A stretch of 42,067 bases of DNA. Origin: Myxococcales bacterium (GTDB lineage Bacteria > Myxococcota_A > Polyangia > Haliangiales > Haliangiaceae). This document shows, piece after piece, positions 33,496-36,462 of the stretch. Numbering within the stretch: the first letter of the stretch is position 1; each line of letters begins with the position of its first letter. Both the position numbers and the translations under genes were made by a program. Below the pieces are notes generated by a model that was not told the DNA's origin, did not search any database, and saw nothing but the letters and a program-made list of their open reading frames with translations. The stretch lies in assembly GCA_016794525.1 (NCBI GenBank), contig JAEUJY010000022.1, forward strand, positions 1 to 42,067, read 5' to 3'.

Positions 33496-36462
33496 TCACG
33501 GACAGGGCGTCGCGTTGGCGACGCAGACGTCGCCGCAGGCGCGCGTGCCGGTCGGGCAGCAGTAGCCGTTCGAGCACGCCTGGCCGCCGCCGCAGGTCAC
33601 GCCGCACGCGCCGCAGTTGGTGTTGCTGGTGGCGGTGTTGACGCACGTCCCGCCGCACTCCACCTGCCCTGCCGTGCAGGCCAGCGAGCAGCACCGGAAC
33701 CCGGCGTTGGCGAACGCGTAGCTGGTCGGCACGACGGTCAGGTCGAAGTCGCAGGTCATGCCGCTGGCGTAGTTGTCGAACGACCCGCCGCGCAGCGTGT
33801 GGACCGTCTGGCCCGCCACGACGCGCGGGTCGTTGACCCACTCCTTGAGGTTGCCGGACATGTCGTTGGCCGAGTCTTGCGAGACGCAGCCCGCGAGCGC
33901 GCCGGTCGCGACCGCCTGATCCTCGTTGACCCCGCCGGCCACCGGGTCGTAGTCGCTGCCGTTGCAGGTCGAGGCGACGTAGCTGTTGCCGTAGGGGTAG
34001 ATGCGGTTGGCCGCGCCCTCGCAGAAGCGACCCCACTCGTCGCTGGTCACGACGCCGGCGCCGTTGCGCGTCACCCGGCACAGCCGCATGCCGGCCGCCG
34101 CGCACGCCGCCTGGACGGTGGCGAAGTTCGCCGTCGCCCACGGCACGCGGTTGGCGACCGAGCACGCGCGGCTGCCGACGATGCCCGGGCCGACGCCGGT
34201 GGCGTCGGGCCGGCTGGCCTCGTAGCGGTACATCACGACGCTCGCGCCGTTGACCGTCAGCGGGCCGACCGTCACGTCGCGCACGCCGGTGAAGCCGCCC
34301 GAGTCGTAGGGCTCGTCGGTGTGGCCGTCGCAGTCGTCGTCGCGGTTGTTGCAGGTCTCGCTGACCGCGGTCGCGCCCGCCGTCGTGACGTTGCAGCGCA
34401 GGCCGTTCTGCGCGGCGTTGCACACCAGCGCGCCGGTGCCGCGGCAGACGCCGAGCCGGCGGGTCGTGCCGAAGGTGCCGTCCTCGCCGCAGGCGGTGCC
34501 CTTGAGCGGGTAGACCTCGTCGGCGCCGCCGTCGCAGTCGTTGTCCTTGCCGTCGCAGCGCGACTCCTCGAGCACCGGATCGCCGTTGGGCTGCCGCTCG
34601 ACGTCGGGGTCGGTGTAGACGCAGTCCCAGCCGGTGGCGCCGGTGCAGGTCGGCGTCGTGCCGACGCACTCGCCGGCGGTCTTGCAGAAGTTGGCCGGGC
34701 GGATCAGCGTCGGGTCGGCGTTGTCGACGAGCCCGTCGCAGTCGTTGTCGACGCCGTCGCACACCTCCTGGCCGGAGAACGTGCAGGCGTACTCGCAGCC
34801 GTTGGCGGCGATGCCGTCGAGGTTGACGAACCCGCCCAGGCAGCCGGCGACGGTGCACGCCCCGCCGCTGCAGCCGGCGACCGCGTGCGGCAGGTTGCAG
34901 CCGGCGCAGTTGGCGCAGTAGCGCGGGTCGTTGAGCTTGTCGAAGCCGTTGTCGACGGCGCCGTTGCAGTCGTCGTCGAGGTTGTTGCAGGTCTCGGCGG
35001 CCGCGCCGACGTCGCCGACGCAGTCGATCGCGCCGAACGCGCAGGTGGTGGTGCCGGCGGTGCACTCGCCGGTGTTGGTGCCGCAGGTGGCGCCGCCGCC
35101 GGGGTTGCCGTCGTCGATCAGCCCGTCGCAGTCGTTGTCGACGCCGTCGCAGGCCTCGACGCCCCCGTTGGTGCGGACGCAGCCGTACTCGCAGCCGTCG
35201 GCGGGGTTGCCGTTGATGTCGTAGAAGTTGGGGTTGCACGCGCCCATCACGCAGGTCGACGCGGCGCACAGCGCGCCGGCGTTGGCGAACCCGCAGGTGT
35301 GGCCGCAGGTGCCGCAGTTGGCGGGATCGGTGGCGGTGTTGAAGCCCTCGTCGACGGTGCCGTTGCAGTTGTTGTCGGTCTGGTCGCAGCGCTCGGTGCC
35401 GGTGTTGATGCAGCCGTACTCGCAGCCGTCGGCGGCGGTGCCGTTGAGGTTGACGAACCCGAAGTCGCACGACGCGACGGTGCAGGCGCCGAGCGCGCAG
35501 CCCTCGACCGCGTGCGGCAGGTTGCACGGCGAGCAGCCGCCGCAGTGCAGCGGATCGTTCTGCTTGTCGTAGCCGTCGTCGATCGCGCCGTCGCAGTCGT
35601 CGTCGAGGTTGTTGCAGGTCTCGGCGCCGCCGCTGGTGGCGCCGACGCAGAACAGGACGCCGTTCTGGCACTGGGTCATGCCGGCCATGCACACGCCGGT
35701 GTCGGTGCCGCAGCTGGCGCCGCCGCCGGGGTTGCCGTCGTCGACCGCGCCGTCGCAGTCGTTGTCGACGCCGTCGCAGGTCTCGACGCCGCCGCCGGTG
35801 GGCGTGCACTGGTACTCGCAGCCCGGGACCGCGGCGTCGACGTCGACGAAGCCGGGGTCGCACATCGCGACCTCGCACACGCCGGCCTGGCAGTCGGCGC
35901 TGGCGTGCAAGAGGTTGCAGACGTTGCCGCAGCGGCCGCAGTTGTTCTCGTCGGTGGCGAGGTTGAAGTCCTCGTCCATCCGGGTATCGCAGTCGTTGTC
36001 GCGGTCGTCGCACACCTCGACGCCGGCGTTGGTCGGGATGCAGAAGTACTCGCAGCCGGCCATCGTCGCGTCGGTGTCGTTCCAGCCCGGCTGGCACGCG
36101 CCGGGGGTGCAGGTGCCCATGTCGCAGGTGCCGAACGCGTGCGGGTACGTGCACTGCCGGCCGCACATCCCGCAGTTGTTGGGGTCGGCCTGCAGGTTGA
36201 AGCCGTTGTCGACGACCGTGTCGCAGTCGTCGTCGGCGTTGTTGCACACCTCGGCGCGCGGCACGCAGGTCGTGCCGTCGATCGGCGCGTCGATGCCGCC
36301 GCCGTCGTCGCCGCCGGTGCCGTCGATGCCGCCGCCGGCGTCGCCGGCGTCGTGGCCGGCGTCGCGGTTGCCGCCGCCGCCGAGGTTGTACGGGTTGACG
36401 TCGCAGCCGGCCAGCGCGAGCGCGGCCAGCACCGCCACCGCCGATGCCCAGGCGCGGATCAC
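33496..36462 (-). CDS. Lipoprotein with multiple Myxococcus-type cysteine-rich repeats (C-x-DDDCDG-x-DEGF cores) and a C-terminal FGE-sulfatase (formylglycine-generating-enzyme-like) domain
   Basis: GTG start at 36460-36462 overlaps the upstream stop (GTGA) and is preceded by GGGAGG. Lipobox LAALALAGC. Six to seven ~80-aa Cys-rich modules: ETCNNLDDDCDGAIDDGYD..., CDGVDNDCDG... C-terminus matches FGE motifs (RLCRVTRNGAGVVTSDEWGRF, YPYGN, GNLKEWVND, LRGGSF, AGFRCCS). Ends with a Cys/Gly-rich tail. Confidence 0.8.
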   Translation of the reverse strand: MIRAWASAVAVLAALALAGCDVNPYNLGGGGNRDAGHDAGDAGGGIDGTGGDDGGGIDAPIDGTTCVPRAEVCNNADDDCDTVVDNGFNLQADPNNCGMCGRQCTYPHAFGTCDMGTCTPGACQPGWNDTDATMAGCEYFCIPTNAGVEVCDDRDNDCDTRMDEDFNLATDENNCGRCGNVCNLLHASADCQAGVCEVAMCDPGFVDVDAAVPGCEYQCTPTGGGVETCDGVDNDCDGAVDDGNPGGGASCGTDTGVCMAGMTQCQNGVLFCVGATSGGAETCNNLDDDCDGAIDDGYDKQNDPLHCGGCSPCNLPHAVEGCALGACTVASCDFGFVNLNGTAADGCEYGCINTGTERCDQTDNNCNGTVDEGFNTATDPANCGTCGHTCGFANAGALCAASTCVMGACNPNFYDINGNPADGCEYGCVRTNGGVEACDGVDNDCDGLIDDGNPGGGATCGTNTGECTAGTTTCAFGAIDCVGDVGAAAETCNNLDDDCNGAVDNGFDKLNDPRYCANCAGCNLPHAVAGCSGGACTVAGCLGGFVNLDGIAANGCEYACTFSGQEVCDGVDNDCDGLVDNADPTLIRPANFCKTAGECVGTTPTCTGATGWDCVYTDPDVERQPNGDPVLEESRCDGKDNDCDGGADEVYPLKGTACGEDGTFGTTRRLGVCRGTGALVCNAAQNGLRCNVTTAGATAVSETCNNRDDDCDGHTDEPYDSGGFTGVRDVTVGPLTVNGASVVMYRYEASRPDATGVGPGIVGSRACSVANRVPWATANFATVQAACAAAGMRLCRVTRNGAGVVTSDEWGRFCEGAANRIYPYGNSYVASTCNGSDYDPVAGGVNEDQAVATGALAGCVSQDSANDMSGNLKEWVNDPRVVAGQTVHTLRGGSFDNYASGMTCDFDLTVVPTSYAFANAGFRCCSLACTAGQVECGGTCVNTATSNTNCGACGVTCGGGQACSNGYCCPTGTRACGDVCVANATPCP
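34768..36260 (-). repeat. Intragenic tandem DNA repeats (~624-bp super-repeat, at least 2 full copies plus flanking partial modules) encoding the Cys-rich modules of the lipoprotein gene
   Basis: The protein shows a ~208-aa super-repeat (modules A-B-C) at residues ~149-356 and ~357-565, flanked by further A/B-type modules. Coordinates are approximate. Confidence 0.5.

Follow-up and report, generated by a model that had tools for sequence, protein, structure and literature searches.

What is encoded by a bacterial gene that joins a lipoprotein signal peptide to cysteine-rich repeats and a formylglycine-generating enzyme (FGE)-like domain, and does the long repeat in its DNA change in copy number? 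We address this question for a gene at 33496..36462 on the minus strand of a 42,067-nt stretch of DNA from a Myxococcales bacterium (assembly GCA_016794525.1, contig JAEUJY010000022.1; the whole stretch is referred to here as the window). A first-pass annotation of the window had described the product as a surface adhesin or matrix protein, with a number of repeats that recombination could change. On balance, and with modest confidence, we favor the reading that the gene encodes a cell-envelope stalk-and-head lipoprotein, a putative ligand binder that works with the product of an adjacent partner gene, and that the repeat is a fixed, old duplication.

A lipoprotein gene coupled to a partner gene

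The open reading frame (ORF) is real, with a frame rich in G+C at third codon positions and a translated product of 988 aa that ends at the stop codon at 33496-33498. Its GTG start codon at 36462 overlaps the TGA stop codon of the partner gene (36459..40562) through a shared GTGA. Reading the sequence directly, we found a Shine-Dalgarno-like GGAGG (36469..36473) 6 nt 5' of the GTG, within the 3' end of the partner gene; all features of both genes lie on the minus strand. The GTGA overlap and the upstream GGAGG together indicate that the pair is translationally coupled, and the two genes are co-transcribed. Promoter and terminator scans around the operon returned no matches, and such scans are uninformative at the G+C content of the window (~74%).

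The N-terminus of the protein, MIRAWASAVAVLAALALAGC, is a lipoprotein signal peptide (aa 1-20; 36403..36462) that ends in the lipobox L-A-G-C, as the first-pass annotation had stated. Lipidation would fall on Cys20 as the +1 residue, and Asp occupies the +2 position. Written as M-I-R-AWASAVAVLAALA-LAGC, the segment contains the positive residue, h-region and lipobox ([LVI][ASTVI][GAS]C) of a signal peptidase II substrate. The signal peptide is followed by a Gly/Asp-rich low-complexity linker (aa 21-62; 36277..36402), in which Tandem Repeats Finder (TRF) detected short-period GCC-type repeats. A Cys-rich stalk with ten MopE-type cores (aa 63-716; 34315..36276; PF11617) comes next, then a head of the FGE-sulfatase/C-type-lectin fold (aa 717-925; 33688..34314) that carries the family motif YEASRPDAT and lacks the catalytic Cys pair, and finally a Cys-rich C-terminal tail of 63 aa with 16 Cys residues (aa 926-988; 33499..33687).

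The closest public sequence was contig JADJGV010000034 (L001), from a metagenome-assembled genome (MAG) of an uncultured 'Myxococcales bacterium', which is syntenic with the window at ~94% DNA identity. The exact window protein had no record in the public gene index that we searched. The L001 ortholog is 93% identical and keeps the lipobox; conservation is even, with 94% identity in both stalk and head, and the linker is the least conserved part (76% identity). Between these two orthologs, the stalk has a ratio of nonsynonymous to synonymous substitution rates (dN/dS) of 0.25; the head and the tail are at 0.19 and 0.13, respectively. A 909-aa entry in a public protein collection (P0171) is near-identical to the window product and has the same N-terminus, VIRAWASAVAVLAALAL.GC, with several frameshifts that are probably long-read assembly errors in the genome of a close relative.

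The stalk contains ten MopE-type cores and an old in-frame duplication

A regular-expression search located ten C..D.DCD cores in the stalk, at aa 73, 151, 229, 283, 359, 438, 492, 568, 636 and 704, and five CEY motifs, at aa 137, 215, 347, 424 and 556. In Pfam, PF11617 (Cu-binding_MopE) matched the protein in 7 stretches with 110.4 bits against a cut-off of 27 (E 4.6e-32); Pfam describes this family as a 'putative metal-binding motif', the repeated motif being ~30 aa long. Two module types can be distinguished: A modules (~70-78 aa), each with a core, NCGxCGxxC and, after an intervening segment, GCEYxC, and B modules (~55-68 aa), which lack CEY. Their order along the stalk is A-A-B-A-A-B-A-B'-B-core. 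The six to seven ~80-aa modules with CEY motifs that had been proposed thus undercount the cores and slightly overcount the CEY modules. The same annotation had called the modules Myxococcus-type Cys-rich repeats, a type for which TIGR02232 is the model, and this assignment did not hold: an NCBIfam scan at E<=0.01 gave no TIGR02232 match, and the modules are of the PF11617 MopE type. The only result of that scan was a weak NF041328 match on the C-terminal tail, and we discarded TIGR02232 as the identity of the repeats.

A self-offset scan of the gene revealed an offset of 627 nt that stood out, with 81% identity in the best 300-nt segment compared with 52-64% at all other offsets, and a separate repeat search found the same pair (300 nt, 77% identity, spacing 627). 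TRF was silent on this repeat because its longest period is 500. The tandem DNA repeat of the first-pass annotation is therefore present, far above background, with a period of 627 nt and not 624 nt. That annotation had a super-repeat occurring at least twice; there are exactly two copies of an A-B-A unit of 209 aa (627 nt), copy 1 at 35392..36018 (aa 149-357) and copy 2 at 34765..35391 (aa 358-566), both defined by offset-627 self-identity. The span previously given, 34768-36018, corresponds essentially to aa 149-565 and thus to the two 209-aa units.

The copies have diverged considerably. The best-kept part of the duplication, 35299-35862 against 34672-35235, shows 57% aa and 73% nt identity over its 188 codons, with 67% aa identity over a 144-aa core. 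Nucleotide identity between the copies is 73-81%, and their longest identical run is 34 nt. The L001 ortholog has the same ten cores, with indels of only 1-3 residues, none of them a whole module. Orthologous units of the window and L001 are 94-96% identical, whereas within either genome the paralogous units share 63-67% identity. This indicates that the duplication predates the split between the window and L001 and that the copies have not been homogenised by concerted evolution or gene conversion. Two A-B-A copies also occur in P0167 (992 aa; ~77% identical over the FGE-like domain), and a more distant relative, P0071 (640 aa), has one A-B-A unit. Copy number differs only among distant relatives, so the number of modules shifts only on a deep evolutionary scale. 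The 627-nt repeat is thus an old internal A-B-A duplication that lengthened the stalk, and it is fixed and under purifying selection.

The head has an FGE-like fold without the catalytic cysteines

All five FGE-type motifs listed by the first-pass annotation (SDEWGRF, YPYGN, GNLKEWV, LRGGSF and GFRC) are present in the head. When searched alone in Pfam, the head reached only 19.3 bits against PF03781, under the cut-off of 23.3 (E 1e-3; aa 806-925). Most homologs, at 35-50% identity, carry a precomputed PF03781 match. As a single sequence against the Protein Data Bank (PDB), the domain matched pFGE/SUMF2 at E 3.6e-4. A profile built from the window domain and 12 homologs matched pFGE at 3e-16, CalU17 at 3e-15 and human FGE at 1e-11, with weaker matches to S. 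coelicolor FGE (3e-7), PorK (2e-6) and EgtB (7e-4). We modeled the head with AlphaFold2 from an alignment of 127 sequences, obtaining a predicted local distance difference test (pLDDT) score of 92 and a predicted template modeling (pTM) score of 0.87, and the top PDB matches of the model in Foldseek were all of the FGE/C-type-lectin fold. The C-terminal FGE-like domain, sub-threshold on its own in Pfam, was thus confirmed by the family profile and the predicted fold.

In a hidden Markov model alignment with chains 2afy and 2aft of human FGE, the Asn of 'SFDNYAS' stands opposite C336, and C341 falls in a 3-residue FGE loop that is missing from the myxobacterial family. With both catalytic Cys residues missing, the head is not a formylglycine-generating enzyme and cannot perform Cu/Cys FGE chemistry. 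The first-pass annotation had raised the case of an FGE fold without its catalytic Cys pair acting as a binding module; the pair is indeed absent, and in view of that absence we regard a binding role as a reasonable reading. The subfamily lacks the FGE catalytic Cys residues, which makes the label 'SUMF1/EgtB/PvdO family nonheme iron enzyme' misleading for it. FGE-fold ('FGS') domains serve widely as non-enzymatic binders, for example in the variable proteins of diversity-generating retroelements (DGRs) (PMC7159879).

Two other Cys residues of the family, those of 'W..aCeG' and 'gltCdFd', align with the structural C235 and C346 of FGE, and both are at least 90% conserved. From this alignment, the head is predicted to contain a disulfide equivalent to human C235-C346. 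The head also contains YEASRPDA, a family-specific polar motif that is nearly invariant. No sulfatase gene was present among the annotated ORFs of the window.

Members of a Haliangiales/Kofleriaceae subgroup have an insertion of tens to ~300 residues (e.g., '...FVFIEAEDG...') that interrupts the FGE-like domain after the 'RLCTEAEW' helix and may be a carbohydrate-binding-like domain. The ORFs with split domains were those of loci L025, L028, L029, L031, L032, L034, L037, L040, L046-L048, L050 and L052.

The Cys-rich tail behind the head gave weak matches to Stig1 (E 0.006, Pfam) and to NF041328 (MXAN_6577-like; 27.9 bits, NCBIfam). Its sequence is similar to the latter half of the A modules (NCGxCGxxC), a similarity that also appeared in the DNA repeat search, and it was modeled as beta-hairpins with a pLDDT of 80-91. 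The tail is confined to a subfamily. The same FGE-like head and Cys-rich tail occur on other stalks: in P0169, they follow genuine EGF-like repeats, which come after a different N-terminal domain, and in P0168, they stand behind a Lys-rich repeated N-terminal region. These stalks are unrelated, indicating that the head has been shuffled between stalks.

The partner protein combines a polymorphic vWA head with a conserved stalk

The partner gene (36459..40562) encodes a protein of 1367 aa with a signal peptide, a von Willebrand factor A (vWA) head with Cys-rich insertions, 12 MopE cores (PF11617, E 1.6e-37 in Pfam), a Cys-rich C-terminal region and a MYXO-CTERM sorting tail. The tail (36462..36593) consists of GGGC, a hydrophobic helix and RRRRPRR. 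It scored 18.1 bits on TIGR03382, over the cut-off of 15.85, and 17.6 bits on TIGR03901, under the cut-off of 20; the partner tails of loci L008, L011, L016 and L044 scored 22-35 bits on TIGR03901. MYXO-CTERM is a tripartite myxosortase tag composed of a Gly/Cys signature with an invariant Cys, a transmembrane helix and an Arg cluster, and in M. xanthus it sends proteins to the cell surface (PMC11980579). The partner tail fits this tripartite definition.

Pfam searches of ten partner heads gave sub-threshold VWA_2 matches only, and a phmmer search of the PDB with the window partner's head returned nothing useful. The AlphaFold2 model of partner aa 27-489 had a pLDDT of 93.7 (30 sequences), and its Foldseek matches in the PDB were all vWA domains: the SpaC pilus adhesin, TRAP, complement C2a and CMG2/ANTXR2, and further BatB, an integrin I-domain and VWF A1/A3. 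As modeled, the head (aa 27-488; 39099..40484) consists of a vWA core into which ~280 residues of Cys-rich sequence are inserted. The metal-ion-dependent adhesion site (MIDAS; D-S-S-G-S / T / D) is complete in the window partner, and these positions are only partly conserved across the family.

Comparison with L001 revealed that the partner head is strongly polymorphic. Over the first four 100-residue bins, identity ran at 70, 67, 55 and 81%; every later bin was at 94-99%. For aa 31-400 (39360-40470), dN was 0.27 and dS was 0.28, and for the rest of the gene these values were 0.02-0.03 and 0.09-0.14, respectively. About 300 nt of the head (39637-39941) gave no blastn alignment to L001 at all. 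The raised dS suggests that a divergent allele was swapped in, rather than point-mutational positive selection alone; this polymorphism is drawn from two close relatives, the window and L001. A variable head on a conserved stalk is a signature of surface receptors involved in recognition, be it of kin, prey or phage.

To see how often the two genes occur together, we counted the neighbors of the 53 family genes in the fetched loci, 7 of which lacked enough flanking sequence. A MopE/MYXO-CTERM neighbor was adjacent in 31 of the remaining 46 loci (29 upstream on the same strand and 2 downstream), and 15 loci had none despite sufficient flank. The regular expression used for this count missed at least two further pairings, so the true fraction is higher. 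Pairing is thus frequent and, given the 15 loci without a partner, not obligatory. Locus L044, from Polyangium sp. 15x6 (NZ_JASBQE010000008), contains two tandem partner paralogs, at 892-4962 (1357 aa) and 5514-9575 (1354 aa), with the FGE-head gene (9302-12352) directly behind both of them, and could serve as an experimental system. The family member of this strain is more distant, with 29% identity in its best segment.

A proposed stalk-and-head ligand binder and its alternatives

In the arrangement that we propose, the lipobox signal peptide would anchor the lipoprotein's N-terminus in a membrane. The flexible Gly/Asp linker leads into ~650 residues of disulfide-rich MopE-type modules forming the stalk, and the stalk carries at its tip the FGE-sulfatase/C-type-lectin-fold domain and a small Cys-rich knob. 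The acidic cores (C..D.DCDG..DE) are likely to bind Ca2+, and the modules would form a stiff, extended stalk. The FGE-like head would bind a ligand, perhaps a protein or a glycan, and would form no formylglycine. The partner mirrors this layout: its vWA head, in which the MIDAS is intact, lies at the N-terminus, a MopE-type stalk follows, and the lipid-anchor signal, MYXO-CTERM, is C-terminal. The two proteins may act jointly in recognition or adhesion at the surface. The adhesin role suggested by the first-pass annotation agrees with this arrangement, as a cell-envelope adhesin or receptor fits the conserved neighbor, a vWA-headed MYXO-CTERM protein.

Several observations weigh against this arrangement. 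The partner is absent from 15 of the 46 informative loci, including L002, L003, L005, L007, L013, L014 and L041; these seven share the Cys-rich tail and, after L001, rank among the loci closest to the window by FGE-domain score. No solved structure matched the stalk modules by sequence in a phmmer search of the PDB. PvdO, EgtB, CalU17 and ToxD are among the top structural matches of the head. These FGE-fold proteins lack the catalytic Cys pair and still take part in chemistry, so the term non-catalytic covers FGE chemistry only. As for localization, the +2 residue of the lipoprotein is Asp, which in E. coli is a signal for staying in the inner membrane; for M. xanthus, retention tracks with +2 Lys and export to the matrix with +7 Ala (PMC3222651). 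The window protein has neither +2 Lys nor +7 Ala.

These structural matches raise the alternative that the head is an enzyme of another chemistry, such as an oxidase, a sulfoxide-synthase-like enzyme or a PvdO-like maturation factor, that would reside in the periplasm and possibly act on the Cys-rich partner or a secreted metabolite, the stalk being only a tether. CalU17, ToxD, EgtB, OvsA and PvdO (the last being a maturation factor for pyoverdine) are all among its closest structural matches; NCBI labels relatives as nonheme iron enzymes; the polar motif E-A-S-R-P-D-A is nearly invariant in the family; and by the E. coli rule, the +2 Asp could place the protein in the inner membrane or the periplasm. 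However, both FGE catalytic Cys residues are missing. In EgtB and OvoA, the iron site sits in a separate DinB-like domain, and Pfam detected no such domain in the window protein. Nor are biosynthetic genes adjacent, the neighbors being the vWA/MYXO-CTERM protein, a PilZ protein, GAPDH and PGK, and a head on a 650-aa stalk is a layout typical of surface binders. We consider such an enzyme unlikely. A role in metal handling, in which the Cys/Asp motifs would sequester or deliver copper or another metal at the cell surface, strikes us as less likely still. It draws on the strong PF11617 matches of both proteins and the name of that family, on the many acidic and Cys residues of the lipoprotein, and on the fact that canonical FGE is a copper enzyme (Cu-bound FGE was among the matched PDB entries). 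Yet Pfam calls the PF11617 motif only putatively metal binding, the protein lacks the Cys pair with which FGE binds Cu, and no copper-homeostasis genes occur in the window; moreover, even Cys counts and an extracytoplasmic location would point to disulfides and not to free thiolates.

Two further alternatives invoke variability of the protein itself. The first-pass annotation had suggested that repeat number could change by recombination, giving size or phase variation; on that account, recombination or slippage between the ~627-nt repeats would make the length of an adhesin or matrix protein differ within populations. The tandem duplication is real, and the number of cores does vary among distant members of the family (typically 3-7, as against 10 here), with P0071 having a single A-B-A unit. 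But the copies are 73-81% identical at the nucleotide level, with no identical run longer than 34 nt, and the comparison between relatives went the other way: L001 and P0167 both have exactly two copies, and the orthologous units are far more similar than the paralogous ones, with no concerted evolution. The repeat also keeps the reading frame, and its dN/dS of 0.25 reflects purifying selection. This account is largely refuted, and we regard it as very improbable. The prospect that the protein is a DGR target or another hypervariable receptor with a diversified C-type-lectin head is more remote than any of these. The window contains no template repeat of the head (blastn of 33496-34360 gave MopE-core matches only), Pfam scans found no reverse transcriptase in those window ORFs that were scanned, and the head is 94% identical to that of L001 with a dN/dS of 0.19. 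We accordingly rejected the assignment as a DGR variable protein.

Comparison with known systems

The stalk-and-head lipoprotein shares individual parts with several known proteins. pFGE/SUMF2 (PDB 1y4j) is the non-catalytic paralogue of human FGE and a soluble, single-domain eukaryotic protein of the endoplasmic reticulum, whereas the lipoprotein of the window is bacterial and has a MopE stalk of 650 aa, extra conserved Cys residues, YEASRPDAT and a Cys-rich tail. PorK/GldK (PDB 9mzu and 9p6h) are FGE-fold outer-membrane lipoproteins of type IX secretion and gliding in Bacteroidota, thus from another phylum, and PorK has no MopE repeat stalk. We excluded a PorK/GldK-type system for the window, which contains no porL/porM/porN-type (gldL/M/N) neighbors. 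MopE of Methylococcus capsulatus, from which PF11617 derives, shares the ~30-aa putative metal-binding motif C..D.DCDG..DE; outside the motif we found no similarity, and a phmmer search with the stalk recovered no MopE chain among the PDB sequences.

TraA of M. xanthus is a polymorphic MYXO-CTERM surface receptor with a Cys-rich stalk. The likeness to it belongs to the partner, in which the N-terminal head is variable and is followed by a stalk of Cys-rich repeats and the MYXO-CTERM tail (PMC11980579). TraA/TraB and the window pair are both two-gene operons; we draw an analogy only and claim no homology. TraA has a PA14 head and TIGR02232 repeats, and TraB is an OmpA-domain protein. By contrast, the partner has a vWA head and PF11617 repeats, and the second gene of the window pair encodes the FGE-head lipoprotein.

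A large, unstudied Myxococcota family

A profile search returned at least 1,162 proteins, mostly with PF11617 and PF03781, which NCBI names 'MopE-related protein' or 'SUMF1/EgtB/PvdO family nonheme iron enzyme'. When 1.84 billion cluster representatives (50% identity) were scanned with a single sequence, the number of matches was 2,688 at E<=1e-3 and fell to 530 at <=1e-10 and to 45 at <=1e-30. Matches in genomes were almost all from MAGs of Myxococcota (Polyangia, Polyangiaceae, Haliangiales, Kofleriaceae and Sandaracinaceae), with Polyangium sp. 15x6 as the one cultured strain. A typical member has 500-650 aa, 3-7 cores and one CEY module. A regular expression for the lipobox followed by C-(D/E/Q)-(V/I)-(N/D)-x-Y matched 64 of 93 homologs that start with Met. 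The window protein shares the architecture and the head subfamily (YEASRPDAT...GFRCC) of these proteins and adds a stalk expansion and a subfamily-specific tail; its ten cores and five CEY modules result from an A-A expansion together with the A-B-A duplication. Our literature searches found no paper on this architecture and no experimental study of any member. The gene is thus a somewhat expanded member of a large, catalogued and unstudied Myxococcota family.

Genomic surroundings

Downstream of the pair on the same strand lie genes for GAPDH, PGK and a fusion of GGDEF and Ser/Thr-kinase domains (27691-30543, minus strand), and a PilZ-domain protein is encoded just upstream of the pair (40687-41670, minus strand). 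Elsewhere, the window encodes a Tdi1-like immunity protein of the type VI secretion system (11747-12340, minus strand) and a 756-aa ORF (3-2273, plus strand) that had no match in a Pfam scan and whose DNA is ~80% G+C. A 912-aa ORF (8739-11477, minus strand) matched MVP_shoulder (4.5e-20) and Vault_3 (2.3e-11) in Pfam and is major-vault-protein-like. Within the gene for a PAS-rich hybrid histidine kinase (22531..27684), ~4.5 kb (23144-27684, plus strand) have no counterpart in the otherwise collinear L001. This segment is 76% similar to the neighboring kinase gene (19294..22323), which suggests that a giant PAS histidine kinase was duplicated in tandem or deleted between the window and L001.

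Implications for myxobacterial surface biology

Taken alone, the lipoprotein gene is an ordinary member of an automatically annotated family, and its pairing with a partner whose head is polymorphic is the most interesting by-product of the analysis. We tentatively put forward, as a possibility that we rate well below an even chance, that the coupled pair is an undescribed myxobacterial surface recognition module, widespread in Polyangia, Haliangiales and Kofleriaceae. By analogy with TraA, the variable vWA head might set specificity for kin, prey or phage, with the conserved FGE-like head serving as a co-receptor or docking partner. Should the pair turn out to be such a system, TraA-like surface biology would reach into the Polyangia and Haliangiales, poorly studied lineages that are abundant in soils and wastewater sludge.

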